Under the pieces are notes generated by a model. That model made no database searches. It saw nothing but the letters and a program-made list of their open reading frames with translations, and was not told the DNA's origin. The translations under genes and the position numbers were made by a program. Of a DNA stretch of 64,000 nt, positions 1 to 64,000 are shown one piece after another. Source of the DNA: a virus; IMG/VR virus record IMGVR_UViG_3300046804_004848, positions 64,001 to 128,000 of that record; one strand, 5' to 3'. Every line of letters begins with the position of its first letter. Position 1 is the first letter of the stretch.

Positions 1-160
1 CTTCTTCATAATCTAGGTAAAAGTCACTATCACGGTCATAGTATTGTCCTGCAGTAGGATCATAATACAACACTTTACCTGATTCATACATAAAAGGTCC
101 TTCAAGACCTTTCATTTTAGTATAGCGAGCGGGAATTGAGGGAATAATTTTGTAACCCAT
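1..160 (-). CDS. hypothetical phage protein (runs off the window edge)
   Basis: ATG at 160 with AGGAGG RBS; reads MGYKIIPSIPARYTKMKGLEGPF...YYDPTAGQYYD; early promoter upstream. Confidence 0.7.
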   Translation of the reverse strand, partial: MGYKIIPSIPARYTKMKGLEGPFMYESGKVLYYDPTAGQYYDRDSDFYLDYEE

Positions 161-186
161 ACAACCTCCTGTGTTATGACAAGATC

Positions 187-215
187 AGTATATGATAAGT
201 TTTATAGTTTGTCAA
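187..215 (-). promoter_or_regulatory. sigma70-type early promoter
   Basis: TTGACA (210-215), 17 nt, TATACT (187-192) on minus strand. Confidence 0.75.
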
Positions 216-421
216 ACCCAATATAAACTAAAATTAAGCAAATCAGATTCTTGTTGGAAGGATACAACACGTTCATTAAAGTTAAATCCTTGTCTCCAAG
301 TATACGGACCAACACAATATTGTTTTAACCAATTTAAAATTTCTTGTATATTATCTTTGTTCTGCACAACAATTTTCGTAACATGCATATAAGTAATACC
401 TGGTTTGATGATTTCGTACAT
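212..421 (-). CDS. small hypothetical protein
   Basis: 69-aa ORF; C-terminus (F...D...FSLYW) resembles that of neighbouring 457..1239. Confidence 0.6.
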   Translation of the reverse strand: MYEIIKPGITYMHVTKIVVQNKDNIQEILNWLKQYCVGPYTWRQGFNFNERVVSFQQESDLLNFSLYWV

Positions 422-456
422 AGATTATACATATTTATGTACCTATTGTCAAGTAG

Positions 457-1239
457 TTACGTAGCCCATTTCAAACTAAACATAGTTGCATGTTCATCAT
501 TATCAAAACTGAACCCTACGGTGTGATACATGTCAGGTTTACATAGTAACTCATAAGATAACTTACTACCTTGTAACCAAGTAACCATATCATTAAAATA
601 TGCCATACTTGGTAATTCTACAAAGACATAATGTTTTGTTGGTGGATTTATTACGTTAGCTATAATATTATCTTTTTTATTTGTAAGCGTAATAGATGCT
701 CCGTTGTTCCACGTCATAATACAAGTACTATAAGGTAAACTGTAGGTAGTTTCTATAATGTTTTCTTCACATTCACTCCATAGAAAATCTTGTGCATCAA
801 CATCAAAATCATTATATTTCTCATCATTTGGATCAACAGGGTATCCATTAAGTTCTCTAACAATTTCTTCTAAATCAACATCACTAATCCACTCCCAACC
901 TTTACCATCTGCATCTTCATTACATAAATCAAGCAAAAAATCTTTATCATGTATGGTAAAGTAAAGTTGAGTATCACTTGTACGATTCTCACACATTGAC
1001 AGTGCTATGGCACAAACTGAGTCTGAATCCCAATAATTATAGTAATCTAATTCATTTAAGCTACCGCTTTTTTGTTGAATATAAATCCAACCTTTAGATT
1101 CTTCGTTAGATTGACCTACGACTTTATCATGATAAGTCCATTCACTTATTTCTGAAATCCAACCTGTTACCCCAATTTCTTTAGGTAACCCATAAAGATC
1201 AATAAATTTTTTAACTTGCTTATATGCTTTAGTGTTCAT
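457..1239 (-). CDS. acidic hypothetical protein
   Basis: 260-aa ORF in a minus-strand run. Confidence 0.7.
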   Translation of the reverse strand: MNTKAYKQVKKFIDLYGLPKEIGVTGWISEISEWTYHDKVVGQSNEESKGWIYIQQKSGSLNELDYYNYWDSDSVCAIALSMCENRTSDTQLYFTIHDKDFLLDLCNEDADGKGWEWISDVDLEEIVRELNGYPVDPNDEKYNDFDVDAQDFLWSECEENIIETTYSLPYSTCIMTWNNGASITLTNKKDNIIANVINPPTKHYVFVELPSMAYFNDMVTWLQGSKLSYELLCKPDMYHTVGFSFDNDEHATMFSLKWAT

Positions 1240-1948
1240 TTTTCTTAAACCATTTTACAAAATTGCTATAGGATTTGACAAAAGTAAGGGTTCTTGTATC
1301 CTTTCCAACCCATTCATCCTTTGATATAACTTTTGTTTTTATATCAAAAAACGTGTCACTTGTGCTAATATATTGGACTAATGGAAAACCCGCAGGAATA
1401 AAAATTCTATATGGTTCGGGTTTGTGCTTAAACAAAATAAACACATTAGTGGTGTGACTGTAATAAAAATCAAGAAACCCAGGCATCACCGTGTAATTAA
1501 CTATGCCATGATGGTGATAAAATGGAGCAGTAGCATAAAAATTTGTAGGTTTTGATGCTTCTGCAACCCAAGGTGATTGTAATTTTAAGTGACTATACTC
1601 AGGGGCAAACTCACCAAATTGTTTACTATCATGGATGGTTCCACTTGAATTATTATGTGAAAAAAGATAGTTAAACGATTTATCAGGGTAAACATCTATA
1701 ACCAAATCGCACCACATAGGTAAAATTATACCATTTGTTAGCGTGTTTTTAATACCTGCACAACTCCTAACCGTTGGTGAATCCACCTCAATATTATAAT
1801 CCTGTTCTATTCTTTTATAAACAGGTTTTAATTTTTCAAACCATGATGGATAACATTTTGAGGTGTTTATTGGTGGTAATGCTTGGCTAATAATTCTATT
1901 TTCTTGTGTGCAAGAAAATGTTATACTAGTTTTTTTCTTAACAAACAT
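1229..1948 (-). CDS. hypothetical protein, possible dUTPase-like beta fold
   Basis: T-x-x-x-C-x-G, GIILPMWCDL, KLQSPW, PG, IPAGFPLVQ motifs typical of a common phage family. Confidence 0.5.
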   Translation of the reverse strand: MFVKKKTSITFSCTQENRIISQALPPINTSKCYPSWFEKLKPVYKRIEQDYNIEVDSPTVRSCAGIKNTLTNGIILPMWCDLVIDVYPDKSFNYLFSHNNSSGTIHDSKQFGEFAPEYSHLKLQSPWVAEASKPTNFYATAPFYHHHGIVNYTVMPGFLDFYYSHTTNVFILFKHKPEPYRIFIPAGFPLVQYISTSDTFFDIKTKVISKDEWVGKDTRTLTFVKSYSNFVKWFKKNEH

Positions 1949-2481
1949 TACTTTTTAGTGTTAGCAAAAGGCCATGCATTTGGATTATTCTGCACAGGGT
2001 CTCCATCCTCATCTTCTTCAGTATCAGGATAATACTCTTCCAAAATATAATCTACAACATCCATGAGTACATCTTCACCCATTTCACTATCTAAGTCAAA
2101 AGTATTAACAAAATCCCATGATTCATTGTTTACATCATACCAAGCAAAAATACAAACTTCTTCTTTTGGACGATGTAAAATTAAATTCCAAGCAAAATCA
2201 TGTTCGGGAAATTCTCCTTCTTTACTATCTTTGTGGATAAAAATTGCATAACAACGCATATCTTTATTACCACCTTCCTCATAAACATACTCACCATCTT
2301 CATCTTCAGTTTCAAGATCACCGTATTGTTCAAAGATGCATTTGATGCCTGGGGTGTCGCTATAGTCAGTACCACGTTCCCATCCATCGTAATCATCAGG
2401 ATAAAACATATCATCAACCACATGTTGAAGTAATTTTTCAAGTCGCTCTAGTTGATCATCTTCAAGTTGCATAGTCATCAT
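1948..2481 (-). CDS. acidic hypothetical protein
   Basis: 177-aa ORF overlapping neighbours. Confidence 0.7.
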   Translation of the reverse strand: MMTMQLEDDQLERLEKLLQHVVDDMFYPDDYDGWERGTDYSDTPGIKCIFEQYGDLETEDEDGEYVYEEGGNKDMRCYAIFIHKDSKEGEFPEHDFAWNLILHRPKEEVCIFAWYDVNNESWDFVNTFDLDSEMGEDVLMDVVDYILEEYYPDTEEDEDGDPVQNNPNAWPFANTKK

Positions 2482-3536: not shown

Positions 3537-4125
3537 TTTCACGTTTCGCAATAATTTTATCAACTAACCCATAATTAATTGCTTCTTGTGCTGACATAAA
3601 CTTATCACGATCCATATCATGTTTAAAGTCATCATATGTTTTACCTGCGGTATTATGTTTTACATATAATTCAGTTAACATGTGTTTCATTTTAAGTATT
3701 TCTTTTAATGAAATTTCCATATCACTTACCATACCACGTGCTCCACCACTAGGTTGGTGAATCATATGACGTGCGTGTGGAAGTATATACCGTTTACCCG
3801 CTGCACCTGCTTGTGCTAAAAATGAACCCATACTGCATGCTTGACCCATAACGATAGTAGATACATCAGGTTTAATAAACTGCATGGTATCGTATATGCT
3901 CATACCATCGGTGACAGAACCGCCTGGGCTGTTGATGTAAAAACTAATATCCTTATCAGTATCTTCACTTTCTAAAAAAAGTAATTGTGCAACAATTAAA
4001 TTTGCACTAATTTCATTTACTTCACCATTTAAAATGACCACACGATCACGCAGTAATCTGCTGTATATGTCATAACTACGTTCACCACGACTAGTTTGTT
4101 CAACAACGATAGGTACTAAACTCAT
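3529..4125 (-). CDS. clpP: ATP-dependent Clp protease proteolytic subunit
   Basis: [25 protein letters not shown] (Ser), MIHQP (His), DRD. Confidence 0.97.
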
Positions 4126-8659: not shown

Positions 8660-9412
8660 TTAAATTTTATCTTTTATAAAATTAGATAAATCGCTTTCCC
8701 ATACAATTGTTACAGTATATCCCAATGATTCAAAATATTTTTGTCTTTGATAATCTTCATTCCATTTTTCCTTGGCTGTTTTTTTAAGTTGATGATGGTA
8801 GAAATCTGCGTGAAATATATTAGGATTACAATGCCAATAGTCACCATAAACTTCTATGATTGACATAGTTTCTTTGTTTACATAATCAGGCTTATACTTA
8901 CCTATTTTTATATTTGGTTGATAACTTGGTAAAATATTTTCTAAAAGTTTTTCTTTTTTACTTCTAGACGATTGCTTTGCTAATTCAAACGCACATGTAA
9001 CTCCGTATTTTTCTAATACAGTTTTATCTCTTTTTGAATAATATTCTGACTTATGTTTTTTGCCAAAAAAGGGCTGTAATTCTGTGGGCAATTCTTTATT
9101 CCAAGGTATTTGTAATCCAACGGCATTTTTATTCCATGGAACTCTTCCTTTACATGCATTAGATAAATTCTTGATCCACGATTCTCTATTTTCCTCTCTA
9201 GTTTTGTATCTACAAGAATTCCAAATTCTAGATTCTTTCATTTCTGGATTTCTTTTCCAATGTAATTGTGCTGAACAAGATTTGGAACAACATTCAGTCG
9301 CAGATCTTTTAACAAAATTATCGCACATTGGGCACTGCTTATGACCTTTTTGATACCCACTCTTATTATCTTTTCTTAAAGATATTCCACATCCACATTT
9401 ACAAATATTCAT
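8660..9412 (-). mobile_element. free-standing homing endonuclease (NUMOD-like repeats plus Vsr/DUF559-type nuclease)
   Basis: CKCGCG, PWNK repeats, PFFGKKH, PD...IEVYGDYWH...GYTVTIVWE. Confidence 0.75.
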
Positions 9413-9438
9413 AACTTTATTTATTAAAGTTATTTGTT

Positions 9439-9825
9439 CTATGTTAGATTATGTTTTTTCTTGTAATCTGCTATTGCGGCTTCTATAGCAGACTCAGCCA
9501 AAATTGAACAATGAATCTTCAATGGCGGGAGTGCGAGTTCCTCTGCAATTTTCGTATTCTTGATAGACGTTGCTTCGTCCAAAGTTTTACCCTTAACCCA
9601 CTCCGTAACCAACGAACTACTTGCAATCGCTGAGCCACATCCATACGTCTTAAAACGTGCATCTGTAATAACACCATCTTCATTCACCTTAATTTGAAGT
9701 TTCATTACATCACCGCAAGCAGGTGCCCCAACCATACCTGTACCAATGGAAGTATCAGACTTATCAAAACTGCCCACATTTCTTGGATTTTCATAATGAT
9801 CAATAACCTGTTCACTGTATGCCAT
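9439..9825 (-). CDS. iscU: Fe-S cluster scaffold IscU
   Basis: MAYSEQVIDHYENPRNVG, GAPACGDVM, KTYGCGSAIAS, LPPLKIHCS. Confidence 0.97.
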   Translation of the reverse strand: MAYSEQVIDHYENPRNVGSFDKSDTSIGTGMVGAPACGDVMKLQIKVNEDGVITDARFKTYGCGSAIASSSLVTEWVKGKTLDEATSIKNTKIAEELALPPLKIHCSILAESAIEAAIADYKKKHNLT

Positions 9826-9976
9826 CTTTTTTCTCCATGGGTATTGTAGTTTCTAAATTTTCTTGTCTTGGAGGATTATCGTTATACTTAGTTAAAAAAT
9901 TCTGCCACGCCTCTTCTTCTTCGGGACTTACTTCAATTTCCATCCATTTTAGGTGACTATCGTTCATACCACACCT

Positions 9977-10186
9977 CTAATAAAGTTTTGTAGGTAATTC
10001 CTGTGTACGTAAATATTTTTTCCAACGACTTACTGCTTTGCCTCTAGCAATTTTTCTAGCGATGCTAGGTTTAGTATACTCTTGACGATCACGTAATTCT
10101 TGCATAATACCACTTTCAAGAACTTTCTTCTTGAATTTTCTTATGCCACTTTCAAATGACTGTCCTTCACGTATTACAACTTTCAT
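9977..10186 (-). CDS. rpsU: 30S ribosomal protein bS21
   Basis: 69 aa, basic; IRKFKKKV..SGIMQELRDRQEYTKPS. Confidence 0.9.
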   Translation of the reverse strand: MKVVIREGQSFESGIRKFKKKVLESGIMQELRDRQEYTKPSIARKIARGKAVSRWKKYLRTQELPTKLY

Positions 10187-11436
10187 TTCTTTCCTTTTTT
10201 CAATAAGGTTCCAAGATAAGATTCTGCTTTAGGTTCCCAAAGTTTATTTAGCAAATTTGGGTCAACAACATGACTTTTATCTATGATAATTTTTTGACCT
10301 TTTAAAAACTTAGTATAAAACATAACCTTAAGTAGCACACGCTCAATTTCACTTTGTAAACCACGTGCACCTGTTTTTAATTCTAAACAATTTTCAGCAA
10401 TTTGTTCAATGGCATCTGCTGTAAAACTTAACTCTATTTCATCCAAACTTAACAAATACTGATATTGCTCAATAAAATTGTTTTTAACTTTAGTCAAAAT
10501 TTGAACCAATTGTTCTTTAGTCAGTTCGTTAATAGAAACACGACATGTAAACCTACCTGTAAACTCAGGAATCATACCAAACTTGGTTAAATCATCAGGT
10601 GAAACTTGCGATAATATATGATCCATAGAAGCACTTTGTCCAACCATCGCAGAAAAACCAATACTATTACCATGCAATCTACGTGAAATAATATCGCTTA
10701 ATCCAACAAAAGCACCACCTGATATAAACAATATGTTTTTAGTATTGACTTCTAACATATCATTACTTGGATGTTTTCTTTTACCAAGCTGTGGTACTCT
10801 ACAAACAGTACCCTCTACAATTTTTAATAGTGCTTGTTGTACACCTTCTCCACTAACATCACGTGTAATACTTGCGCTTTCGCTTTTTCGTGCAATTTTA
10901 TCAACTTCATCTACAAAAATAATACCACGCTCTGCTCGCTCAATATCACCATCAGCAGCAGCTACTAATCGTTGTATCATACTTTCAACATCATCACCAA
11001 CATAACCTGCTTCAGTTAATGATGTGGCATCAGCAATAACAAATGGCACATCTAAATATTTTGCTACTGTTTTAGCCATTAGTGTCTTGCCACCCCCGCT
11101 TGCTCCGAGAATAAGTACATTGGCTTTTTGTATTTCTAACTCTTTAGTTTCTGCTGTGATGCGTTTGTAATGATTAGATACTGCCACACTAAGTAACATT
11201 TTGGCATTATCTTGTCCAATGATATATTGGTCTAAAAATGTTTTAATGTCATCAGCATAAAAACTTATTTTACGTGGTGAATCATCCTCAAGTGGTTCAT
11301 CATCCTTGAGCAAATCATTACATAAATCAACACAATCACTACATATTGCAGTGCCTTCACCGACAATAAGTTTCTTGACAACATTTTTATGTTTGCCACA
11401 AAAACTACACTCTTGAAAATGATAAACTTCACCCAT
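10183..11436 (-). CDS. clpX: Clp protease ATP-binding subunit ClpX
   Basis: CSFCGK zinc finger, ADATSLTEAGYVGDDVE, DEVDKI, RDVSGEGVQQALLK, RKH loop, IGF loop. Confidence 0.96.
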   Translation of the reverse strand: MGEVYHFQECSFCGKHKNVVKKLIVGEGTAICSDCVDLCNDLLKDDEPLEDDSPRKISFYADDIKTFLDQYIIGQDNAKMLLSVAVSNHYKRITAETKELEIQKANVLILGASGGGKTLMAKTVAKYLDVPFVIADATSLTEAGYVGDDVESMIQRLVAAADGDIERAERGIIFVDEVDKIARKSESASITRDVSGEGVQQALLKIVEGTVCRVPQLGKRKHPSNDMLEVNTKNILFISGGAFVGLSDIISRRLHGNSIGFSAMVGQSASMDHILSQVSPDDLTKFGMIPEFTGRFTCRVSINELTKEQLVQILTKVKNNFIEQYQYLLSLDEIELSFTADAIEQIAENCLELKTGARGLQSEIERVLLKVMFYTKFLKGQKIIIDKSHVVDPNLLNKLWEPKAESYLGTLLKKGKK

Positions 11437-12558: not shown

Positions 12559-13242
12559 TTATCGGCTCATCATACGACGAACATCTTGAATGTCGCCTGT
12601 ATGTCTTGCATCCCAACGATAAACAACGCTTACTACTTTTCCTCCATCAAGTACAGCGTTATCAACCAAACGCAATCCACTTAGAATACCTTTGTTATTG
12701 GTACGGATAAAATTATTCATAGTGGTAGCAATTTCTACTGCATCATTGCGTGTAGCAACGTTGACATTTTGTGGTGAACCTGCTGCTTGGGTAGGTTTAC
12801 CTTCAACATCAATGTCACTGATTGATACGTTTTGATTATCGTAATTACTTGCAATACGATTAGTTTTTTGGTCACGACCACGCTCAAGCGATTTACTAAT
12901 CATGTTTACACTAGTATCACTTGCTACAGTTTCTTTCCAAATAAAATCTATTAGTTTCTTCTTAGCATCAAGTTCTGCGACCTTGTACGCACTTTCTGTT
13001 GCGCTTGGGCTGTTACCCCAAACAGGAGCATATCCTGTTACTTCAATAGCTTTAATATCACGGAAAAACATACTGTATTCAACTTTTACACCACGTCTTT
13101 TAAAATCTTGTGTAACACGTTGCTCGCTTATTGCGGTTTGTTCGCCGCTGCGGATGCCTGGGTCGCTGAGCATTTTAGTTGCGGTTGAACATCCACCCAT
13201 GAACACAGTAAGTACAGCCATAGCTAAAAGACTTTTTTTCAT
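12559..13242 (-). CDS. lipoprotein (LPP20-like)
   Basis: lipobox-like MGGC; AYKVAELDAKKKL pattern; early promoter at 13275-13303. Confidence 0.6.
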   Translation of the reverse strand: MKKSLLAMAVLTVFMGGCSTATKMLSDPGIRSGEQTAISEQRVTQDFKRRGVKVEYSMFFRDIKAIEVTGYAPVWGNSPSATESAYKVAELDAKKKLIDFIWKETVASDTSVNMISKSLERGRDQKTNRIASNYDNQNVSISDIDVEGKPTQAAGSPQNVNVATRNDAVEIATTMNNFIRTNNKGILSGLRLVDNAVLDGGKVVSVVYRWDARHTGDIQDVRRMMSR

Positions 13243-15064: not shown

Positions 15065-15520
15065 TCATTTAGTGAGTTGATAAACCATCATAAAGTTATC
15101 ATATGCTGCTTTTACTGTGGGGTTTTGTAATTTTTGTGCAGCTTCATGCACAAGTGCAGCTAATCCACTCTCAACTGCTTCATATATACTAGGATATTGT
15201 AGTGGATGACATTCTTCTCCAAAAGCTTCAGACAATTTTATCCAAGCAATATTTTGTTCTTCAGTAATTGGAACTTTACTAGGGCGCATTTCCAAACTTT
15301 TACGCAATGATTTACTAATCTCCTCACGTGCAAATGTTGCTGCTGCAATTAATGGAGCAAATTCAGGATCTATGTTGTACTTGCGGATATAGTGGCCTGG
15401 GCGACTGATGACCAAATGACACCCTTCACTAAAAGCATTCTCAAAACTAGGATCATGTTCAAGAATAGGTATATACTTATGCCTAACTTTTTTATAAAAC
15501 GTTTCGCTCATAACGGGCAA
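15065..15520 (-). CDS. hypothetical protein
   Basis: 151-aa ORF. Confidence 0.6.
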   Translation of the reverse strand: MPVMSETFYKKVRHKYIPILEHDPSFENAFSEGCHLVISRPGHYIRKYNIDPEFAPLIAAATFAREEISKSLRKSLEMRPSKVPITEEQNIAWIKLSEAFGEECHPLQYPSIYEAVESGLAALVHEAAQKLQNPTVKAAYDNFMMVYQLTK

Positions 15521-21508: not shown

Positions 21509-21976
21509 ATGATATATTATACATACGCATATTTAAGAATAGATGGCTCTCCATATTACATCGGAAAAGGTAAAGGAAAGCGAGCATATCAAAAGCACAA
21601 AACATTTAATCCTCCTAAAGATAAATCAAAAATAGTTTTTTTAGAAACTAATTTGACTGAACTTGGTGCCCTAGCTTTGGAGCGCAGGTATATTCGTTGG
21701 TATGGTCGTAAAGATATTGGAACAGGAATTCTCCATAATAAAACCGATGGTGGCGATGGGGCATCTTTTTTCGGGAAAGAAAATAATCAATTCGGTAAAA
21801 AAGGAGAATTAAGTCATTGGTTTGGGAAGAAACGTCCATGGACAGATGAACAAAGAAAGAAGCAATCAGAAGTTCAAAAGCATACTAAAAAATATATTAG
21901 GACTCCTGAACATAATGCTATGATGTCACAGCGAGTTAAAGAGGCATTGTCACGTAAAAAACTTATTCCTCACTAG
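21509..21976 (+). mobile_element. GIY-YIG-type homing endonuclease
   Basis: [18 protein letters not shown]...I, N.TDGG.G; opposite strand to neighbours; TAAATA at 21498-21503. Confidence 0.8.
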
Positions 21977-22266: not shown

Positions 22267-22488
22267 TCATTCAACTCCAAAATGTTTTTTAAGTTTACTT
22301 TCTGTAATTGAACCCACTTGACTAATTTCAATGCATTCCTTAACAATCAACTCGGCAAACTTTTGATTATAAATTTCCCTACCCTCAGTAAAAGAATAAA
22401 GACGATTATGGACTCGTTCCAGATGTGCTAATTCATCCTCAGCAAATCGTTCAGCCTGTTCAGCCAGTTCCTTAATTCGTTCGTTCAT
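22267..22488 (-). CDS. MNERI-family small protein, copy 1
   Basis: MNERIKELAEQA...KFAELIVKEC...LKKHFGVE. Confidence 0.75.
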   Translation of the reverse strand: MNERIKELAEQAERFAEDELAHLERVHNRLYSFTEGREIYNQKFAELIVKECIEISQVGSITESKLKKHFGVE

Positions 22489-22578
22489 TCTTCTAATCCT
22501 AATTCTTTTGCCAGCCCCAAACAAAACCAGTGACAAAACCTATCACATAACAGGCCAGCAGTGCCAAACCAATCTCGT

Positions 22579-22926
22579 TCATTCTTCAACTCCGAAATGT
22601 TCTTTTAGACCTTGAATATTATCATAACACTTTTCAGCACAAATTTCAAAATTTGATTGAAAAACAGGATCTTCTTCTGATTCAGAAAGACCAAACAATC
22701 TTTCTGCTTCATTGTCGAGATATTGGCAACATTCTTTCACAATCAACAGGGCGAACTTTTCTCTACCTTTTTCACACGCAAACAAAAGACTGATGATTTC
22801 TGCTGGAGTGGCTACTCGCCATTCGCCATCTTCTCGTCGAAGAATTTCACGATCATTGTAATCCCACATGCCATCTATTACAGGTAGTTCAGCCTGTTCA
22901 GCAAGTTCTCTAATTCGTTCGTTCAT
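22579..22926 (-). CDS. MNERI-family small protein, copy 2
   Basis: MNERIRELAEQA...KFALLIVKEC...LKEHFGVEE. Confidence 0.75.
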   Translation of the reverse strand: MNERIRELAEQAELPVIDGMWDYNDREILRREDGEWRVATPAEIISLLFACEKGREKFALLIVKECCQYLDNEAERLFGLSESEEDPVFQSNFEICAEKCYDNIQGLKEHFGVEE

Positions 22927-36255: not shown

Positions 36256-37830
36256 TCAGGTTATAGAACTTAATGTCATTATAAAGGGCATGGGTTCAAC
36301 GTATTCACTGTGGTCACGAATATGTGTATCTAAATCACTATGATAATTTTGAAGGTGCTGTAAAATACGTACAACAAGTAATGTTGCCATTACTAAGTCA
36401 TCTGTTTCGCCTATTTTAGCAGCATAACTACCTTGTGCTGCAACAAAAGACTTGAGTTCTGTCACTAATGCTTTACTTTTAAGCACCATTTTTTGACTTT
36501 CAATAAGGTTTTTAAGCTTACTACATGCTGCTAGTTTACTTTTTTGTGTTGTATTGAAACCTTTTCTATAACGTTTTACTGCACCCACCTGTTTAGGCTC
36601 ACTTAACATCGTACCTTTAATATTTTCTTCACCATATTCTGATAAAGAAATTAAAGCAGCTTCACCAATCGTATTGTTCTCTAAACTATAATATAAATTA
36701 TTAGGTTCATTGGTACATTCTACAATATAATCATTAATCTTTGCTAGTAACTTAATTTGTTCAGGTATGGTAGTTCTATTATGTTTCCACTCTCCAATTT
36801 GTGTGGTAGTATTAGCTTCAAAAATTTGTATAGCAGCAGGGTCACTACCTGTACCTAAACTTGGGTCTAATCCCACACAGTAAATATTTCCTTTTTTTGG
36901 TTTAGAATACCATCTTATTTGACCCATACGTTCAATGGGTTCAATGCCTTCAAGCGTAGTTAACATTAGTGGATTAATTAATGTTTCATCACCAATAACA
37001 AATTCACAACCAATTTCTCGTCTAAATCTTTCTTCACCAAGTTGGGATTTCATGGATTCAGCCCATGCGTCATCACGGCCTGGTTGCTCGCTCCAATGTG
37101 CTTTATATGCTTTAAAACCATTAATTCCTAATTCTGTATCATTACCATACTCATCTTGAGTTTTATTAGCTGCTTTCCAAATTAATGCAAACTGATCTTC
37201 ATCACTATTTGGGGTACTTGTTATAATTGCCTTACCACCTGTTGCTAGTGTAGGAGCAATAGAAGTCCAAAATTCTTTAGCTATACTTGGTCTAACGAAC
37301 GCAAATTCATCAAGATATAATAATGATATAGAAAGACCACGACCTGTATTTTCTGTTGTAGTAGCACTAATAATTCTACTACCATTTTCAAAATCTAATG
37401 ATCCTTTGTTATAAGTTACAACACCTGCTTTAATATGAGTAGGACAGTTTTCATAACCATAACGTATACGTTGCATAATTTCCTGCGAACCTGCATACTT
37501 ATGCGCTGCTACTAAAATTGTACTGTCGGGAACAAACATGGCATACCAAAGTAAATAACCTGCAGCACTTGTAGATTTACCACTTTGACGTGGCATCAAA
37601 GATATTGAATAACGATAATTATGATAAGTTTCAATTAAACGTTTTTGATAATCATATGGATGATAATTCATACTACCCTTAGTAGGGTGTTGAATCATGA
37701 AAAAATTATCCATAAAATACAGATAACCTGTATTAGGATCACAGCATTTTAAGAAATCTTGTAACTGTTTGTCATCCTTAAATGATGTTAACTCATAAGG
37801 ATTCTTAATAAGTTGAATACTACTATTCAT
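36256..37830 (-). CDS. terminase large subunit (T4 gp17-like)
   Basis: PRQSGKS, YLDEFAF, TSTPN, GLDPS, ENN, DDLVMA. Confidence 0.95.
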   Translation of the reverse strand: MNSSIQLIKNPYELTSFKDDKQLQDFLKCCDPNTGYLYFMDNFFMIQHPTKGSMNYHPYDYQKRLIETYHNYRYSISLMPRQSGKSTSAAGYLLWYAMFVPDSTILVAAHKYAGSQEIMQRIRYGYENCPTHIKAGVVTYNKGSLDFENGSRIISATTTENTGRGLSISLLYLDEFAFVRPSIAKEFWTSIAPTLATGGKAIITSTPNSDEDQFALIWKAANKTQDEYGNDTELGINGFKAYKAHWSEQPGRDDAWAESMKSQLGEERFRREIGCEFVIGDETLINPLMLTTLEGIEPIERMGQIRWYSKPKKGNIYCVGLDPSLGTGSDPAAIQIFEANTTTQIGEWKHNRTTIPEQIKLLAKINDYIVECTNEPNNLYYSLENNTIGEAALISLSEYGEENIKGTMLSEPKQVGAVKRYRKGFNTTQKSKLAACSKLKNLIESQKMVLKSKALVTELKSFVAAQGSYAAKIGETDDLVMATLLVVRILQHLQNYHSDLDTHIRDHSEYVEPMPFIMTLSSIT

Positions 37831-39977: not shown

Positions 39978-40673
39978 CTATTTTAAATCAAGTGCTCTAG
40001 CTTTGTGTGCTACTACACAATAAAAATGTTCCATGACTTTTTTATCGGTACCATCTTCATTTTTGCCAACAATAAGCTCAAACTGTAAATTTTCAAATTT
40101 ATCAATATCAAATCCTGTACGCTGTAATAATGCTGCTAACATGCGCTCACCAAAAATACTATAATGGTTTAAATTATATTCATGCAAACGATCACAGTTT
40201 GGTGCAGGAACTTCAATATAGATGTATTTTTGATGTTTTAATACTCTATTATATTCTGCTAAGGTAAACAATGGGTATGGACTATGCTCTAATGCATGTC
40301 TGCAAAAGATTAAATCTGTACTTTCATCAATATACCCTTTTTGTTGTGGCAAAAAACTTAAATCAAATGGTTCAACAGGATGTCCATTATCCTTACACAT
40401 CTTAATATCATTATCACTTAAGGTAATTCCAACATAATTGGTATAACCTTTTTGTTTGATTTCGTCCATAAAGTACCCAGGCCCGCACCCCATGTCTAAA
40501 ATTCTAGCATCTTTTGGTAACTCAAGTGGGTCAATATACTTTTCAACTACAGATTTTGTAAGTTGTTGATGAAAACCGCTAGGTCCTTCATCGTAAATAT
40601 GTGTTGCTAACCATTCATGATACCATTTTAACTTGATAGCATCAACTGTTTTGTTAATATCAATATTTTTCAT
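39978..40673 (-). CDS. class I SAM-dependent methyltransferase
   Basis: ILDMGCGPG, RHALEHS, EYNRVLK. Confidence 0.88.
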   Translation of the reverse strand: MKNIDINKTVDAIKLKWYHEWLATHIYDEGPSGFHQQLTKSVVEKYIDPLELPKDARILDMGCGPGYFMDEIKQKGYTNYVGITLSDNDIKMCKDNGHPVEPFDLSFLPQQKGYIDESTDLIFCRHALEHSPYPLFTLAEYNRVLKHQKYIYIEVPAPNCDRLHEYNLNHYSIFGERMLAALLQRTGFDIDKFENLQFELIVGKNEDGTDKKVMEHFYCVVAHKARALDLK

Positions 40674-45550: not shown

Positions 45551-46053
45551 TTTTTATCACCTTTTGCTGCTTCATTCATTTTAGCAGCAGTATTATGCGC
45601 ATCAATTATATCTTGTGGAATAGGACAATTTTCTACAAACTTAATGACTTCTTCAATCTTAACACGTTCAGGTCCTTCTACTGTTTTGAGAATTTCACGG
45701 TCTCTATATCTATCAACATATTTAATAATATCCTGACCTTTTTCTTTTACAATTTGAGTTTGAGTAACTACTTTTTCTTGAATTTCTACATTCTTTTGTG
45801 CAGCTTTGACTTCAGCCTCTTTAATCTTTACTTCCATTTCTTTGACTTTCATCTGCCAAATCATTTCATTAGCATATCCACCTTCAAGATAAACACCAAT
45901 AGTAAAGACTAAAATACTAATAATTTGAATGGGTAATTTATATTTGTTAACAAAAGGAATAAACCCTAGTACAAACCCTAGAATTATTCCAACAAAACCC
46001 GCAGCAAATATGGCATGAATAGCCCATTCAGGTAATAAAGATAATATCCACAT
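45547..46053 (-). CDS. i-spanin (Rz-like)
   Basis: N-terminal TMs, coiled coil, C-terminal CPIP; directly upstream of the lipoprotein. Confidence 0.72.
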   Translation of the reverse strand: MWILSLLPEWAIHAIFAAGFVGIILGFVLGFIPFVNKYKLPIQIISILVFTIGVYLEGGYANEMIWQMKVKEMEVKIKEAEVKAAQKNVEIQEKVVTQTQIVKEKGQDIIKYVDRYRDREILKTVEGPERVKIEEVIKFVENCPIPQDIIDAHNTAAKMNEAAKGDKK

Positions 46054-46081
46054 ATTGCTATTTATCGTACTAAATATTTTT

Positions 46082-47041
46082 GTGCGTAAGTTAATCAATA
46101 TACAAAAAGTACAAGAAACACCTTTTCAAAATGTTGCTTGGATTATGTCAAATCTTTGCAACTACGATTGTAGTTTTTGTTATCCAATCAATAAGCGTGG
46201 TGATATACATTTTGAAAAATTAGATGTTTATCGTAATCTTGTAGACAATATTTGTGTAGATTATACACCTACTAAGTTTATTTTCAATGGTGGAGAACCC
46301 ACATTGTACAGCAATTTGTCTGAATTATTTGAGTATATTATAGAAAAAAATGCTTCTAATCATATCAGTATGATTACTAATGGTAGTAGAACATTACGGT
46401 GGTGGCAAGAATTTACTAGCAAACCACGTATTCATGACATTATTTTTACCTATCACACAGAACAAGAAGTGTTTTTTAAAAACAATATTGATGCTTTTGT
46501 TGAAAAAATAAACCTTTTTCATAGTATGCCTGTACATGTCACAATATTATTCACTGCACCACCTACTAATTTTGAATCAACTTTTACAGCATTTGATTAT
46601 ATTCAACAGCGTGTCGGTGCAAATTGTCAACTAAAACCTATCTTAGGTTCAGAACTTTTACCTTATAGTGCAGAACAATTGCAGTTATTTCAACAATACT
46701 CAAATGTCAAAGGTAAACTAGCAGCAACCAAAGTTTACCCTAAAACATTACTAACACAAAAATCTATAGTTACTTTTGATGATAACTCTACCATTTCAAT
46801 AAGTGACCCAAAAGATTTTATGCTACAAAAACTTAATTACTTTAAAGGAATGGAATGTGATATTGGTTTAAATAGTATTGTAATTTTTGGTACAAAAATA
46901 TATCGTGGTAAATGTCGTGTAGGTGGAGAAATTGCTACGATTTACGATAAAGATATCTTTTGTAATAATTCAGTGGTTTGTGATAAAATAACGTGTTTAT
47001 GCAATCGTGACTGTTTAGAATCAAAACGTTTACTTATGTAA
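46082..47041 (+). CDS. radical SAM protein
   Basis: CNYDCSFC, GGEPT, ITNGSR, C-terminal Cys cluster. Confidence 0.88.
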   Translation: MRKLINIQKVQETPFQNVAWIMSNLCNYDCSFCYPINKRGDIHFEKLDVYRNLVDNICVDYTPTKFIFNGGEPTLYSNLSELFEYIIEKNASNHISMITNGSRTLRWWQEFTSKPRIHDIIFTYHTEQEVFFKNNIDAFVEKINLFHSMPVHVTILFTAPPTNFESTFTAFDYIQQRVGANCQLKPILGSELLPYSAEQLQLFQQYSNVKGKLAATKVYPKTLLTQKSIVTFDDNSTISISDPKDFMLQKLNYFKGMECDIGLNSIVIFGTKIYRGKCRVGGEIATIYDKDIFCNNSVVCDKITCLCNRDCLESKRLLM

Positions 47042-48247
47042 AAAATTAATAATAGTTTGTGTAATACGTTCAACTTCACCATCAGTTAATTCAGGATAAA
47101 TTGGAAGTGACAATGTATGCGCACAAAATTGCCAAGAATTCTCTAAGAAGGAACAGTTATTCTTAGCTAATCTATATCTTGATAAATTTTGTTTGTAATG
47201 TATTTTAGTCTCTATACCATGTAAAAGTAAGTATTCTTGCAAACGATCACGATTCTCTACACTAATTGCAAACTTGTTAACGCTATGATATGCATACATA
47301 CGTTCTTCTTTTGATTCACATAAGTTTGCAATATCATGTTTAGCAAATTCACGCATATAATAGGCAGCAATATCTTTTCTGCGTTGTTGCCATGCTTCAA
47401 TATACTTAGTACGTACTAAAACATGTGCACAATCAATTTCACTTAGCTTACTATTGGTTCCTAATTGTGTAGCATAAATGCTATTTTCTGAACCATTTTT
47501 GCAAATTGCTCTAATATGGTCTGCTAAATTATCATAACTAGTAACAATAACACCACCATTACCACTAGCATTTAAGTTTTTTGTAGGATCTAAACTAATT
47601 GCCATAGCGGTAGACATTTCATTTCTACCACTTAACCAATGTTGCGCACCATCTTCATATACTTTACCACCACGTATAGTAATTGTGCTCAATGCTTTAA
47701 ATCGTAAATCATTTTCTTTATAATTATTGTAATATGGTTTTGCACCATATAACCCTACAATACAAATATCATAAATGATATCAGGATTTTGTTCAACAAT
47801 TTTTGTAACTTCATCCCACTTCATCATACCATATGCGTCAACATCAACCAAAGTAACATTGTAACCATGACGAATAAAAGCATGTAATGTAGCTTTATAG
47901 CTTACATCAGGTAAAAGGATATGACTTTCTTTTTTTCTGTATGATGTTACTAATTTATTAGCTTCAGCAATAATTTCTAAAGCTTGTGTTCCACTATGCA
48001 CTGCAAATGCATGTTTATAGTGTAAATACTCACAAAAATATTCTTCTAAATCAAACTTGTGCTTACCACTAACTAGTTTACCACTTTTTAATACTTCATC
48101 AGTGACACTGAGTAATTCATCTTTAATAGATTCGTACTGTCTATCTAAACGAATAAATGGAATACTATTTTGAGAGTTTTGATTGCCAATAGGTGCTGTC
48201 TGCGAGCCACTTGTAATAGCATTCCAAACCGATTTCAAAGTCAACAT
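47030..48247 (-). CDS. DegT/DnrJ/EryC1/StrS sugar aminotransferase
   Basis: SGTQAL, EDGAQ, SLDPTKNL..GNGG, LSLPIYPEL. Confidence 0.88.
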   Translation of the reverse strand: MLTLKSVWNAITSGSQTAPIGNQNSQNSIPFIRLDRQYESIKDELLSVTDEVLKSGKLVSGKHKFDLEEYFCEYLHYKHAFAVHSGTQALEIIAEANKLVTSYRKKESHILLPDVSYKATLHAFIRHGYNVTLVDVDAYGMMKWDEVTKIVEQNPDIIYDICIVGLYGAKPYYNNYKENDLRFKALSTITIRGGKVYEDGAQHWLSGRNEMSTAMAISLDPTKNLNASGNGGVIVTSYDNLADHIRAICKNGSENSIYATQLGTNSKLSEIDCAHVLVRTKYIEAWQQRRKDIAAYYMREFAKHDIANLCESKEERMYAYHSVNKFAISVENRDRLQEYLLLHGIETKIHYKQNLSRYRLAKNNCSFLENSWQFCAHTLSLPIYPELTDGEVERITQTIINFLHK

Positions 48248-49133
48248 ATGGATTATACTCAAAGTCTATTTTAGCTAATTCTGAATTTAACTTACCCCTA
48301 CTAGGATAGTCAATGTTTTTAGGATTAATAACTATATTTCCTTTACCAACTATCTGTACCGCTAACTTGGCAGCATCATATAATGTAATTTTGTCAGATT
48401 GATTTCTAGTAAGGTTATAGGTTTTATTTACTGCGTTCTTAGAAATAGAAGCATTCGTTACACCCCATGCTACATCTTCAACATAACTAAAGTCTAATAC
48501 TTCATGCTCACCTTCTACGATTAAATCTTGTCCACGCATAGCATTGAGTAAAAACTTACTTAATACTCTATCTTCAACGTCTAATGGTCCGTACACTGCA
48601 CTTGGTCTAAGTATCGTATATTCACGTTTGTATTGCTCTGCCCATAACTTCACTAACTTTTCACCTGTTAACTTTAATGTTCCGTATATATCAATAGGGT
48701 TAGTAGGATGCGATTCATCAATAGTTCCACTCCAATTACCATATACCATACTACTACTGACATATACAAATCGTTTAACATGGTGGTTTTTACATAGTTC
48801 TAATAAGTTTAACAATCCTTCTGTTAAGGTATATGCACCATAAGTAGGATTAGCATTAACAATTTTTGAACGTGGCATTGCTGCAAGGTGTATGACAGTA
48901 TGTGGTTTAAGCATATTGAACACCATATGCAATTGTTTATCTGCAATATGAAAGTTATGTACAATGGATTTGAGTTCACTCTTACGTTCTTTAACTAGAT
49001 AGCAAAGTTCATCTTTTGGGATAAACCCATAATCAGTACAATTATCAATAATTCGTACTTCATGCTTACGCTTTTCAAATTGTCGTACGACATTATGTCC
49101 AATAAAACCTAATCCACCTGTTACAAAAATCAT
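48165..49133 (-). CDS. NAD-dependent nucleotide-sugar epimerase/dehydratase
   Basis: TGGLGFIG, SSSMVYG, YGTLK, VYGP. Confidence 0.92.
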   Translation of the reverse strand: MIFVTGGLGFIGHNVVRQFEKRKHEVRIIDNCTDYGFIPKDELCYLVKERKSELKSIVHNFHIADKQLHMVFNMLKPHTVIHLAAMPRSKIVNANPTYGAYTLTEGLLNLLELCKNHHVKRFVYVSSSMVYGNWSGTIDESHPTNPIDIYGTLKLTGEKLVKLWAEQYKREYTILRPSAVYGPLDVEDRVLSKFLLNAMRGQDLIVEGEHEVLDFSYVEDVAWGVTNASISKNAVNKTYNLTRNQSDKITLYDAAKLAVQIVGKGNIVINPKNIDYPSRGKLNSELAKIDFEYNPYVDFEIGLECYYKWLADSTYWQSKLSK

Positions 49134-60385: not shown

Positions 60386-60456
60386 AAATATCCCCTTATA
60401 AAGATATTTATAAAAAAGGCATCCTAAGATGCCTTGTAAATGTGTCTAATTAAAAA

Positions 60457-61374: not shown

Positions 61375-61427
61375 GCGTGTGTCCTTTAAAGTTAAACAAG
61401 TATTTAGCCTTAATTAAGTTAATATGC

Positions 61428-61454
61428 AAAAAATAGGGGCACGAATGCCCCTAT
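61428..61454 (-). terminator. Rho-independent terminator after the tmRNA coding piece
   Basis: ATAGGGGCATTCGTGCCCCTAT followed by a T run. Confidence 0.85.
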
Positions 61455-61617
61455 TGGTGGGTTTGGTTACAAGGTCTTTCCTACCTCGCTATTAGGCGTT
61501 TGCTGCTAATAGATATGTATCGTCGTTTGCAGATACTTATTTTGCTAGAATTACGTTCTTCGCCTATCGTGTTGTCCATATCCGTACTTGTTACCCCGTC
61601 GAAACCAAGTCTAGCCC
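61455..61617 (-). ncRNA. ssrA: permuted tmRNA, coding piece (5' acceptor strand plus tag ANDDTYLLAANA)
   Basis: GGGCTAGACTTGGTTTCGACGGGG; resume codon GCA at 61530; tag frame ends TAA TAG; 3' end approximate. Confidence 0.9.
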
Positions 61618-61626
61618 ATCATAAGT

Positions 61627-61878
61627 TTACTTTATGTATCTGTTAATAAGTTTAATACCTGCATACGTTCCTAACACAGTAAACATCATTTTGAATACTG
61701 TCATCCAATCTGTAGCATTACTTAGCGTTATCTTAAGAGGACCTGCTTCTATAGAATCCGTTGTTTTAGGTAAAATAAACCATTGTGCATAATAAACAAC
61801 AAGATCCCAGGAATACTGTAACACAAAATATGCAGCTATAGATATTAAAATGCCTGTAAATAACCCTTTACGATACAT
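61627..61878 (-). CDS. two-TM membrane protein inside the tmRNA intervening segment
   Basis: 83 aa; AAGGTG RBS right after the tmRNA CCA; two hydrophobic helices. Confidence 0.7.
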   Translation of the reverse strand: MYRKGLFTGILISIAAYFVLQYSWDLVVYYAQWFILPKTTDSIEAGPLKITLSNATDWMTVFKMMFTVLGTYAGIKLINRYIK

Positions 61879-61890
61879 TAAATCACCTTA

Positions 61891-61954
61891 TGGTGGACTA
61901 GGGGGGATTTGAACCCCCGTCCGCAGCACTTTTCCATCAACTTCATACAACAAT
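61891..61954 (-). ncRNA. ssrA: permuted tmRNA, acceptor piece (T arm plus CCA)
   Basis: GGACGGGGGTTCAAATCCCCCCTAGTCCACCA; CTAGTCC pairs with GGGCTAG giving G3.U70; TAAATA at 61960-61965; 5' end inferred. Confidence 0.9.
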
Positions 61955-61962
61955 ACTACTAT

Positions 61963-63087
61963 TTATTTACCGCTTGGAATCTTACCTTCTACACCTTCAA
62001 TGTAAAAATTAATCCTACCTTTCCATGCATCATCACCAACCACATCTTTTTCTAATACAATTTTACCTGTATTGTCTTTAAGTGGTCCTTTAAATACTTC
62101 AAATGTACCTGCTTTTAATCCTGCCTTAACTTCATCAACCTTTTTCTTGGCAGTATCGCTAACAACATCATTGATTTTAACTAAATCATTAGCACCTTCT
62201 TTGGTTCCCCATTTTGTATCAGAGGTTTTCCATGTACCATTTAGTACATCATTAACAGCTTTTTCGTAGTATGGTCCCCAATTTACAATGGCTGATCCAA
62301 GATGTGCCTTAGGAGCAAATGCGCTCATGTCACTATCCCAACCAAAAGCAAACTTACCATTTTTCTCAGCAGTAAGCAATACCGCAGTTGAATCTGTATT
62401 TTGTAACAATACATCTGCTTTTTGATTGATCAAAGCTTGTGCTGCTTCACCTTCTTTAGGTGGATCAAACCATGTATTCACCCAAACAACCTTAGTAGTA
62501 ACCTTAGGATTGACACTTCTTGCACCCAATGTAAAAGCATTAATATTACGTAATACTTCAGGAATAGGGAAACTTGCTACAAATCCTAGTGTATTAGTTT
62601 TTGTCATACTACCTGCAACAATACCTGCCATGTAAGCATCTTCATAAAATTTTGCTTCATATACACGTAGATTTTCTGCTGTCTTATAACCTGTAGCATG
62701 TTCAAACTTAACATCAGGATGATCTTTAGCTACTTTTTCCATAGCATCACCAAAACCAAATGATGTAGCAAAAATAAGTTTATTACCTTGGCTAACTAAA
62801 TCACGAATAACACGTTCAGCATCAGCACCTTCAGGTACTTTCTCCACAAAACTAGTTTTGATCTTATCACCGAATTTTTCTTCAATGTGCTTACGACCAT
62901 TATCATGAGCAAATGTCCACCCCGCATCGCCAACAGGTCCGACATAGATAAATCCTACCTTAAGAGGTTCTGTTGCTTTTGGTGCTTCAGCAGGTTTTGC
63001 TTCTTCTTTTTTTCCACAACTTGCTAGTGTAAAAGCAGTAATTGCAGCTAATGCAGTATGCATTAGTTTACGTTTAGTAAAAGTCAT
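61963..63087 (-). CDS. BMP-family ABC transporter substrate-binding lipoprotein
   Basis: lipobox LASC, GFIYVGPVGDAGWT.AH..GR, ATSFG, INAFTLGA, WFDP. Confidence 0.92.
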   Translation of the reverse strand: MTFTKRKLMHTALAAITAFTLASCGKKEEAKPAEAPKATEPLKVGFIYVGPVGDAGWTFAHDNGRKHIEEKFGDKIKTSFVEKVPEGADAERVIRDLVSQGNKLIFATSFGFGDAMEKVAKDHPDVKFEHATGYKTAENLRVYEAKFYEDAYMAGIVAGSMTKTNTLGFVASFPIPEVLRNINAFTLGARSVNPKVTTKVVWVNTWFDPPKEGEAAQALINQKADVLLQNTDSTAVLLTAEKNGKFAFGWDSDMSAFAPKAHLGSAIVNWGPYYEKAVNDVLNGTWKTSDTKWGTKEGANDLVKINDVVSDTAKKKVDEVKAGLKAGTFEVFKGPLKDNTGKIVLEKDVVGDDAWKGRINFYIEGVEGKIPSGK

Positions 63088-63415
63088 ATATTTTTCCTTA
63101 AAATGGTAAAAATATTTACTCTACTAAAATACGTTATAGATATTTTTTAAGTTAAAATTATTGCTGCTATAAAAGCAACAATGATTATAAAAAACCATAC
63201 TGTTGTGGTTTTTCCGTCAGGGTCAACCATTATATTCCCTTAATTACACGTAATTTTTTAAGTAACTCTGCTGCTTCAACAACATGATTAATTTTTTCAT
63301 CGTTAGTTTCTTGTTTTTCTGATACATTTTCAGGTTTGTGCAATGCATCTTCAGGTGGATTACCAATACCAACTACTCTATCCCACTCACGCTGTGTATA
63401 ATTCATGTTGCGTCC

Positions 63416-63814
63416 TCAGTTAAATATTTGAGTAAATCTACGTCCACGATATTCAAAAGTAACAATTTCACCTGATTGTACTTGCATGGGTTGCTGACTA
63501 CAACGTGTTTGCATATCAACGGTAGTGTTGTCGTTTTGTCCACCTAACTGACTACCTATAACCGCACCTGCTGCAGTTGCAATATCTCTACCACTGCCAC
63601 CACCTATTTGATTTCCAATTGCAGCACCTGCTATTGCTCCAAGTACACTACCACCTTGTGACCTACGCTCTAGAGGAACCGTAGTACAAGTTTGTTGATA
63701 CACTGTGTTGAAACGTGGTTGTCGTGCAACAACCACCGCTACATCTTGATTGTAGCTTTGTGCGTAACTTGTACTACAACTTAAAATAGCTAGCGCAATT
63801 AATACTTTTTTCAT
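63416..63814 (-). CDS. glycine-zipper 2TM secreted protein
   Basis: GSVLGAIAGAAIGNQIGGGSGR..AT.AGAVIG. Confidence 0.85.
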   Translation of the reverse strand: MKKVLIALAILSCSTSYAQSYNQDVAVVVARQPRFNTVYQQTCTTVPLERRSQGGSVLGAIAGAAIGNQIGGGSGRDIATAAGAVIGSQLGGQNDNTTVDMQTRCSQQPMQVQSGEIVTFEYRGRRFTQIFN

Positions 63815-64000
63815 TGTTGATTACATGTACGTTCTTGTACAATTGTTCCATTTGGTTGTAATATTTCTTTCCATTCTGTGCAATGCACTACGGGTGATTG
63901 TGGTACTTGTTGCACAACAACGGGTTGATCTACAATATAGGGTCTAGTAATAGCATATGTTACTGCACCACCAATAATTGCAGGAGCAACCCAATGATGA
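63811..64000 (-). CDS. hypothetical protein (start outside the window)
   Basis: ...WVAPAIIGGAVTYAITRP...CTEWKEI...ERTC. Confidence 0.55.
   Translation of the reverse strand, partial: HHWVAPAIIGGAVTYAITRPYIVDQPVVVQQVPQSPVVHCTEWKEILQPNGTIVQERTCNQQ

Follow-up and report, generated by a model that had tools for sequence, protein, structure and literature searches.

Background

Avoidance of restriction sites by virulent phages with double-stranded DNA (PMC6286503) is the described phenomenon that comes closest to the pattern reported here, the near-absence of the asymmetric tetramer CCAG (CTGG on the other strand) from a 64,000-nucleotide stretch of phage DNA. This stretch, referred to below as the window, comprises positions 64001-128000 of the 137,959-bp linear IMG/VR record IMGVR_UViG_3300046804_004848 (the contig), whose completeness is given by CheckV as ~39%. 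As in the cases summarized in that survey, short words have been removed synonymously and in a lineage-specific manner, and relatives of the phage lack different 4-bp palindromes. Unlike the avoidance which it summarizes, the main word here is an asymmetric tetramer, a class of word of which none is eliminated in any of 82 relatives, and the copies which the genetic code forces on the phage survive with a flanking C tract.

Bacterial systems with this exact 4-bp asymmetric specificity exist. In H. pylori A45 a knockout confirmed a CCAG methyltransferase (the hp0944 homologue), Thermacetogenium phaeum was reported to have a CCAG methylation motif (PMC10689673), and for Sporosarcina sp. P32a CCAG was listed as a Type II motif already present in REBASE (PMC5930826). 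The passages that report these motifs describe no partner nuclease and hold no tie to this phage or its host. Under-representation of CCAG (odds 0.11), among other tetramers, has been reported for the halovirus Hardycor1 (PMC7911831); unlike the phage described here this is an archaeal virus with 68% GC, and the passage on its tetramers contains no analysis of forced sites or their flanks. The same words (CCAG, CTAG and CCWGG) are also affected by the Dcm/Vsr bias, in which very short patch (VSP) repair in enterobacteria is said to convert CTAG to CCAG (PMC4687349). The direction is the opposite one, since here CCAG is purged and the observed/expected ratio (O/E) of CTAG is 0.82.

Depletion of CCAG/CTGG and other short words

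Positions 1-64000, no strand assigned: CCAG/CTGG nearly absent, as are CCGG, CGCG and TCGA, from counts against Markov expectation.

An earlier note, made by eye from the letters of the window, had reported that CCAG/CTGG is nearly absent except within CCWGG, that CCTG/CAGG is abundant, that CCGG is missing and that TCGA is very rare, and each of these impressions was borne out by counting. The window contains 18 CCAG and 17 CTGG, 35 copies against 274.2 expected under a maximum-order Markov model (O/E 0.13, z -14.4), and 26 of the 35 lie inside CCWGG, whereas CCTG occurs 218 times and CAGG 200 times. CCGG and CGCG are both absent (14.0 and 33.7 expected) and TCGA is found 4 times (62.2 expected). 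Over the whole contig CCAG/CTGG was the most deviant tetramer under the same model (83 vs 616.8 expected, O/E 0.13, z -21.5), and the corresponding values were 18 vs 137.9 for TCGA, 0 vs 67.6 for CGCG and 6 vs 43.1 for CCGG. The individual sites that had been located by eye were found at 399, 1479, 2348, 3923, 7779, 7908, 28613, 54260 and 61807 as reported, and two were slightly misplaced, lying at 13157 rather than 13167 and at 35807 rather than 35806.

The deficit held when both Markov and codon corrections, which the earlier note had proposed, were applied. Divided by context, CCAGH occurs 23 times in the contig against ~497 expected and CCWGG 60 times against 119.5. In 200 replicates of synonymous-codon shuffling, CCAGH on the coding strand was found 7 times against 182.1 expected and DCTGG 13 times against 219.6, so that O/E at avoidable sites, those not forced by the genetic code, was 0.04-0.06. 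Taking the four tetramers together, coding sequences contain 37 avoidable sites against 792 expected, and 186 of the 202 open reading frames (ORFs) contain none. The 13,216 bp of non-coding DNA hold 6 CCAG/CTGG against 43-50 expected, with 56 CCTG/CAGG against 56 expected. Depletion is seen in either orientation and in non-coding DNA too, and hence acts on the DNA itself as a double-stranded molecule. A cause at the level of RNA or translation was rejected on these two observations and on the switch from C to G that the flanking tract described below makes with the orientation of the site.

The depletion extends along the contig, with a CCAG O/E of 0.15 or less in six of seven 20-kb chunks. 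The exception, at 40-60 kb (30 vs 121 expected), holds an un-purged gene for a protein of 1023 amino acids (aa) at contig positions 42653-45724 (minus strand, outside the window). In the four chunks that overlap the window (contig 60001-137959) observed over expected counts were 12/83, 11/81, 10/89 and 4/74. A regional purge of the kind seen with the first-step transfer of T5 was considered and rejected, the depletion not being confined to one block in the ~39% of the genome seen. Type III enzymes can be escaped by keeping all sites in one orientation; this too was rejected, as the copies left on the plus strand of the contig were 43 CCAG and 40 CTGG.

The loss of CCAG is achieved through context-dependent synonymous codon choice. 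GCT precedes a Gly codon in 2 of 182 cases compared with 911 of 2487 elsewhere, in agreement with the earlier remark that Ala-Gly is spelt GCA GGT rather than GCT GGT. CCA precedes G[ACT]N in 5 of 384 cases compared with 635 of 1174 elsewhere, a C-ending codon stands ahead of Trp in 1 of 726, and a codon ending in CC stands ahead of AGN in 1 of 2008.

Several longer words were also nearly absent from the contig under the codon-shuffle null, namely CAGCTG (0 vs 29.3), GACATC/GATGTC (3 vs 23.6), GCAGGC/GCCTGC (1 vs 15.5), GCACGC/GCGTGC (0 vs 11.5), AGCGCT (0 vs 10.1) and TGGCCA (1 vs 13.3), and GGCC was found 31 times against 76.4 expected. GCA-GGC is shunned in the contig, whereas CCA-GGC is favoured.

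Lineage specificity and substitution spectrum

Positions 36256-37830, minus strand: terminase large subunit gene (TerL), from which the relatives were obtained; it contains one CCAG/CTGG, a forced Pro-Gly.

TerL, which was identified by PHROG and Pfam matches, is ~51% identical to that of Pseudomonas phage PA5oct, 49-51% identical to those of Sinorhizobium phage Phosso and Agrobacterium phage Atu_ph07, and 73-78% identical to those of hundreds of uncultured contigs with sizes up to 524 kb. These matches place the contig in a large environmental clade, as part of the genome of an uncultured giant phage from a lake.

In a set of 82 non-redundant relatives (at least 9 kb each) CCAG O/E was 0.64 at its lowest, and none had a value of 0.15 or less. 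TerL itself has 1 CCAG/CTGG, whereas 79 orthologues average 7.8 and none of them has fewer than 3. The CCAG gap is private to this lineage. The tetramers that are nearly eliminated in relatives are all palindromes (AGCT in 11/82, TCGA in 5/76, ACGT in 3/82 and CATG in 1/82), and the clade is a mosaic of differing avoidance profiles. Single relatives were each seen to lack a 4-bp palindrome of their own, with AGCT at 0/34 (L009), 1/49 (L062) and 0/18 (L074) and TCGA at 0/26 (L081), 0/19 (L041) and 1/25 (L039).

The words that deamination of CCAG would produce are not enriched in the contig (CTAG O/E 0.82; TCAG/CTGA 1.07), whereas its transversion neighbours are (CCTG/CAGG 1.56, GCAG/CTGC 1.52, CCAC 1.34). 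We also followed 20 aligned orthologous positions at which at least 40% of relatives have CCAG/CTGG. The phage retains the word at 1 of the 20, and the replacements were chiefly A>T at position 3 (10 cases) and G>A at position 4 (8 cases), with no C>T. Since deamination products are not enriched and the replacements are mainly transversions, the loss of CCAG is due to selection and not to mutational decay. A Vsr/VSP-repair bias, which would give an excess of CCAG and a deficit of CTAG, was rejected on the O/E of 0.13 for CCAG and 0.82 for CTAG, and the statement in the earlier note that the bias runs opposite to a Vsr-driven one was supported. The same note had proposed strong selection against a short asymmetric word, and this was upheld by the equal depletion in both orientations and in non-coding DNA, by its restriction to this lineage and by a spectrum that is not one of deamination. 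The pattern is the classical signature of host-driven recognition-site avoidance, here extended to an asymmetric tetramer.

Survivors at code-forced Pro-Gly pairs

The earlier note had explained the surviving CCWGG by tolerance through Dcm-type methylation, and this part of it was not supported. Of the 60 CCWGG in the contig, 57 lie within ORFs and 54 of these 57 are in-frame CCW-GGN, that is, Pro-Gly. Conversely, 54 of the 55 Pro-Gly dipeptides encoded by the contig are written CCA-GGN (34) or CCT-GGN (20) and the remaining one is CCC-GGC; the relatives use all four spellings (CCA 288, CCT 220, CCC 204 and CCG 179). Every one of these spellings contains an avoided word, as CCA before GGN creates CCAG, CCT creates CTGG, and CCC or CCG creates CCGG. 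In codon shuffles the in-frame Pro-Gly sites were at expectation (54 vs 49.4), whereas off-frame, avoidable CCWGG occurred 3 times against 21.4 expected (Poisson P = 1e-6). Because Pro-Gly must be CCN-GGN and CCGG is avoided as well, CCWGG seems tolerated owing to a constraint of the code and gives no evidence for Dcm-type protection; tolerance of that type is not supported given that off-frame CCWGG is depleted. The comparison of CCAGG with CCAGH, for which the earlier note had stated that equal depletion of the two would speak against its reading, went that way once the forced Pro-Gly sites were set aside. An origin of the CCWGG copies in a repeated element or in the stem of a terminator was also rejected, since the sites are in different genes and share nothing but C enrichment.

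The joint avoidance of CCAG and CCGG thus collides with the genetic code at Pro-Gly, which explains the CCWGG exception without methylation. For analyses of short words in general this is a caution that seeming tolerance of a longer word may be a coding artefact. The forced Pro-Gly pairs also provide a natural experiment, being sites that the phage must keep. Pro-Gly may itself be thinned at the protein level, as would be expected if forced sites are still costly. Its O/E was 0.55 in the proteins of the contig compared with 1.13 in pooled relatives, with Gly-Pro at 0.58 in both; in 40 non-redundant relatives of at least 15 kb the median was 1.04 and the minimum 0.60, and in five of the seven 20-kb chunks of the contig the value was 0.22-0.52. 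The contrast over the contig is clear, but in view of the orthologues (see below) we regard this thinning as suggestive only.

A strand-specific C tract at forced sites

Silent positions around the forced sites are enriched in C on the strand that reads 5'-CCAGG-3'. Examples from the window are as follows.

Positions 2333-2367, minus strand: forced Pro-Gly CCA-GGC (plus-strand CCTGG 2348-2352) and its C tract; on the CCAGG strand 8/10 silent positions of the flanks have C.
Positions 3908-3942, minus strand: forced Pro-Gly CCA-GGC (plus-strand CCTGG 3923-3927) and its C tract; 7/10 silent positions of the flanks have C.
Positions 13142-13176, minus strand: forced Pro-Gly CCA-GGC (plus-strand CCTGG 13157-13161) and its C tract; 8/10 silent positions of the flanks have C.
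Positions 15381-15415, minus strand: forced Pro-Gly CCA-GGC (plus-strand CCTGG 15396-15400) and its C tract; 7/10 silent positions of the flanks have C.
Positions 40462-40496, minus strand: forced Pro-Gly CCT-GGG (CCAGG at 40477-40481 on plus) with G-ending codons enriched, that is, C on the CCAGG strand; 5/10 flanking silent positions.

Five codons on either side of each site were compared with a null given by the codon usage of the gene in which it lies. Around the 34 CCA-GGN sites C-ending codons numbered 123 against 41.9 expected and G-ending codons 31 against 32.1. Around the 20 CCT-GGN sites the relation was reversed, with 61 G-ending codons against 22.6 expected and 18 C-ending codons against 22.2, so that in both classes the excess is of C on the strand reading 5'-CCAGG-3'. 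In total 184 of 540 silent positions carried such a C against 64.5 expected (P = 5e-41), and 134 against 50.1 when the two positions adjacent to the site were left out; at 44 of the 54 sites there were at least two. Counted from the first C of CCAGG the tract extends from -13 to +17, which is 15 nucleotides (nt) on each side of the central base or ~31 nt, with 1.8- to 4.1-fold enrichment. Its limits are sharp, baseline being reached just outside them (4 vs 4.9 at -16 and 7 vs 6.9 at +20). G was depleted at positions 3' of the site (0 vs 3.8, 2 vs 4.4 and 3 vs 4.7). The C of the tract replaces both T and A, and the tract is therefore not a transition bias. No specific longer motif recurred in the tract, only C-rich di- and trinucleotides such as CC (118 vs 54.8).

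Five other codon pairs that served as controls (Ala-Gly, Thr-Gly, Pro-Ala, Pro-Asp/Glu and CCA-ANN; n = 82-232) had no tract, and the Gly-Pro control gave a mild enrichment which was not strand-specific. The tract was also absent in 141 non-redundant relatives, where 471 CCA-GGN sites gave a ratio of 1.04 and 406 CCT-GGN sites a ratio of 1.07. The per-gene null, the control pairs and the relatives together rule out gene-level codon usage as its cause. Within the contig the nine Pro-Gly sites of the un-purged 1023-aa gene have no tract (mean 1.11 compared with 3.87 elsewhere, P = 1e-4). As the un-purged gene also lacks the tract, the two behave as adaptations that accumulate together, and its lack of both would be expected if they grow with residence time. 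Among the papers listed for recoding around unavoidable sites or for flank effects we found no description of a tract flanking forced sites.

Interpretation and alternative explanations

We consider it probable that the phage displays recognition-site avoidance of the restriction type, with its code-forced sites armoured by the C tract. The lineage would have been selected to shed words cut by host defences, CCAG/CTGG foremost and with it CCGG, CGCG, TCGA and several hexamers, and the agent in the case of CCAG would be a restriction-type enzyme specific for this word. The survivors are the sites that function keeps, namely Pro-Gly pairs and the stems and T loops of transfer RNAs (tRNAs) and transfer-messenger RNA (tmRNA), along with a few probably recent imports. 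At the forced sites there is a second adaptation, the shift of silent positions within ~15 nt to C on the CCAGG strand. The tract may attenuate the putative enzyme, either by lowering the chance of cleavage or by raising that of protective modification within a contact zone of ~31 bp, and would in this manner tip the race between cutting and protective modification towards the phage. In its width and symmetry the tract is reminiscent of enzymes whose contacts or cuts lie ~15 bp to either side of the recognition sequence. It is possible, and we propose it tentatively from sequence evidence, that the ~31-bp strand-specific tract is the imprint of the non-specific contact zone of a putative CCAG-directed host defence enzyme, against which the unavoidable sites have been armoured.

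Several points weigh against the avoidance of a CCAG-specific enzyme. The contig still has 83 CCAG sites in both orientations (43 + 40), many targets for an enzyme that cuts every site, and the benefit of removing a site must then be a per-site one. The survey by Rusinov et al. (2018) gives near-elimination for 7.1% of orthodox palindromic Type II sites and for less than 0.5% of sites of other types (PMC6286503); with elimination occurring almost solely at orthodox Type II sites in the figures it reports, a purged asymmetric tetramer is unusual. On orthologues the thinning of Pro-Gly is a small effect (8 vs 10.0), and of 7 columns with a conserved Pro-Gly 5 are retained. The genes were 202 crude ORFs from greedy longest-ORF calling, and the DNA of the relatives was sampled solely within 10 kb of TerL.

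Of the other explanations the one nearest to ours is that the words are liabilities once methylated, one host marking CCAG, CCGG, CGCG and TCGA and a Type IV or IIM nuclease of the next host cutting the marked DNA. It would leave the same footprint as classical avoidance, methylation of CCAG is documented in bacteria, and the symmetric tract of ~31 bp is close in size to the distance of ~32 bp that separates the two cuts of MspJI-family enzymes. Methylation of the asymmetric CCAG on one strand would direct one-sided cutting, yet the tract is two-sided, and we judge this explanation unlikely. It is distinctly improbable that Dcm-type C5 methylation of CCWGG, by the phage or its host, blocks an enzyme specific for CCAG or CCRG and so makes CCWGG tolerable. 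In its favour 60 of the 83 survivors are inside CCWGG, a methyltransferase gene could sit in the remaining 61% of the genome, and a C tract could in principle serve a cytosine-modifying enzyme. It is opposed by the forced nature of 54 of the 57 coding CCWGG, by the depletion of the avoidable ones (3 vs 21.4), by Pro-Gly being rarer than in relatives, which suggests that the sites are still costly, and by a search for C5-methyltransferases (PF00145) in the contig (~39% of the genome) in which none was found.

Self-avoidance, in which nucleases of the phage itself would shred GC-rich host DNA at CCAG, CCGG, CGCG and TCGA, has in its favour that the four tetramers are all at least 50% GC in a genome of 35% GC, that the putative hosts are Burkholderiales, which have a high GC content, and that 61% of the genome is outside the contig. 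Of the ORFs scanned none was identified as a nuclease of this kind, the relatives avoid different palindromes as would be expected from varying host systems, and viruses known to carry such nucleases protect their own DNA by methylation; we give this explanation very little weight. Mutational decay, in which CCAG would be hypermutable (for instance through cytosine methylation and deamination) and would erode without selection, can account for the forced sites, as purifying selection would keep those in this case too. It is scarcely credible in view of CTAG and TCAG/CTGA not being enriched, of the absence of C>T among 19 orthologous replacements, of an O/E at avoidable sites (0.04-0.06) that is far below that of typical decay, and of a tract in which the changes to C are both transitions and transversions.

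Recognition-site avoidance, if this is the correct explanation, has wider implications. An asymmetric 4-bp word has been purged about as fully as any palindrome, which would imply that uncultured bacteria of fresh water have a CCAG-directed defence that is potent and has lasted long. Phages would both delete target sites and armour those forced by the code, and if the tract does attenuate cleavage it would add a second level to anti-restriction adaptation and provide a footprint of the enzyme that can be tested. The architecture of a defence enzyme (its width, symmetry and strand preference) could then be read from phage genomes alone.

Un-purged genes, structural RNAs and other observations

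Survivors other than forced Pro-Gly pairs were found in a small number of places in the window.

Positions 9243-9247, no strand assigned: isolated surviving TCTGG (CTGG at 9244), inside ORF 8660-9412.
Positions 22267-22536 and 22579-22926, minus strand: two small paralogous ORFs with a cluster of avoidable CCAG/CTGG (sites 22419, 22464, 22511, 22527, 22555 and 22803).
Positions 21509-21976, plus strand: homing-endonuclease-like ORF adjoining the un-purged paralogues (phrog_314 'homing endonuclease', E = 2.2e-9; phrog_15526, E = 1e-23).
Positions 38102-38120, no strand assigned: two surviving avoidable CCAGT (sites 38102 and 38117), inside the virion-protein gene 37849-39729 (phrog_1645).
Positions 61492-61952, minus strand: permuted two-piece tmRNA with one CCAGG (61807) and one TCGA (Rfam RF04321, 95.9 bits).

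The two paralogous ORFs have 4 and 3 avoidable sites of the four tetramers compared with neutral expectations of 1.2 and 2.4, and are not depleted; measured against the contig-wide rate of depletion these counts gave P = 4e-7 and 2e-4. Both proteins begin with MNERIxELAEQAE and end with HFGVE, and neither matched a Pfam or PHROG family. The adjoining ORF 21509-21976 gave no Pfam match, and a GIY-YIG identity that had been guessed for it by eye was not confirmed by Pfam. In the 1023-aa gene 10 avoidable sites of the four tetramers were found against 28.8 expected, and 4 of the 6 CCGG in the contig are located in this gene. Its product, which matched no Pfam or PHROG family, is perhaps a fibre or receptor-binding protein, and the gene is a candidate for recent acquisition, which is probable. 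We infer that the paralogues and the 1023-aa gene are probably recent imports which have not yet undergone the purge.

Structural RNAs of the contig retain CCAG/CTGG at 4 positions in tRNAs and 1 in the tmRNA. TCGA is likewise held by tRNAs, with 8 of the 18 contig copies, 7 of them in T loops; seven tRNAs retain a TTCGA T loop, and the TCGA count is lowered by the others, whose T loops are TTCAA, TTTGA or similar. The T arm of the tmRNA is GGGGGTTCAAATCCCCC, and its T loop is without TCGA, as it had been read in the earlier note. ARAGORN made no tmRNA call at 61492-61952, though Rfam finds a tmRNA there. By ARAGORN 19 tRNA genes were placed at contig positions 1987-18179, within its first 18 kb and outside the window.

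Within this tRNA cluster is a 340-aa ORF of methyltransferase fold (contig 9420-10442, plus strand, outside the window). It gave a borderline match to N6_N4_Mtase (26.6 bits compared with a cut-off of 26.7) and weak matches to tRNA guanine-N2 methyltransferases and to PHROG families annotated 'DNA methyltransferase'. No match to PF02086 (Dam-type), PF02384 (N6), PF00303 (thymidylate-synthase-like) or PF01702 (TGT/DpdA) was found in the contig (~39% of the genome).

Apart from the terminase the window encodes virion proteins, a piece of a Pol III alpha-type polymerase, an ATP-dependent ligase and ClpX, and megablast against named phages gave no match. Two closer relatives by TerL, P0001 and P0002, are 91-92% identical. 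The TerL of P0002 has 675 aa and is 91% identical across merely 52% of the query, which suggests that it may carry an insertion such as an intein. At contig 45850-49119 (outside the window) a PhoX alkaline phosphatase (Pfam E = 2e-121) adjoins a PstS-like phosphate-binding protein. The proteins closest to this PhoX, with 58-64% identity, are those of freshwater Burkholderiales (for example Limnohabitans, Polaromonas and metagenome-assembled genomes of Comamonadaceae), a hint only that these might include the host. Among the papers listed for restriction-modification systems of Limnohabitans none was relevant.

GAAGAC/GTCTTC was both depleted and one-sided, with 10 sense copies against 26.6 expected and 0 antisense copies against 11.8, and 10 of its 11 sites have the same genomic orientation. 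The sites span contig positions 8212-120107, and those in the window are GTCTTC on the plus strand at 30381, 35407, 41185, 41493, 51113, 53069 and 56107. A strand bias of this kind is known for enzymes that require inverted pairs of sites.

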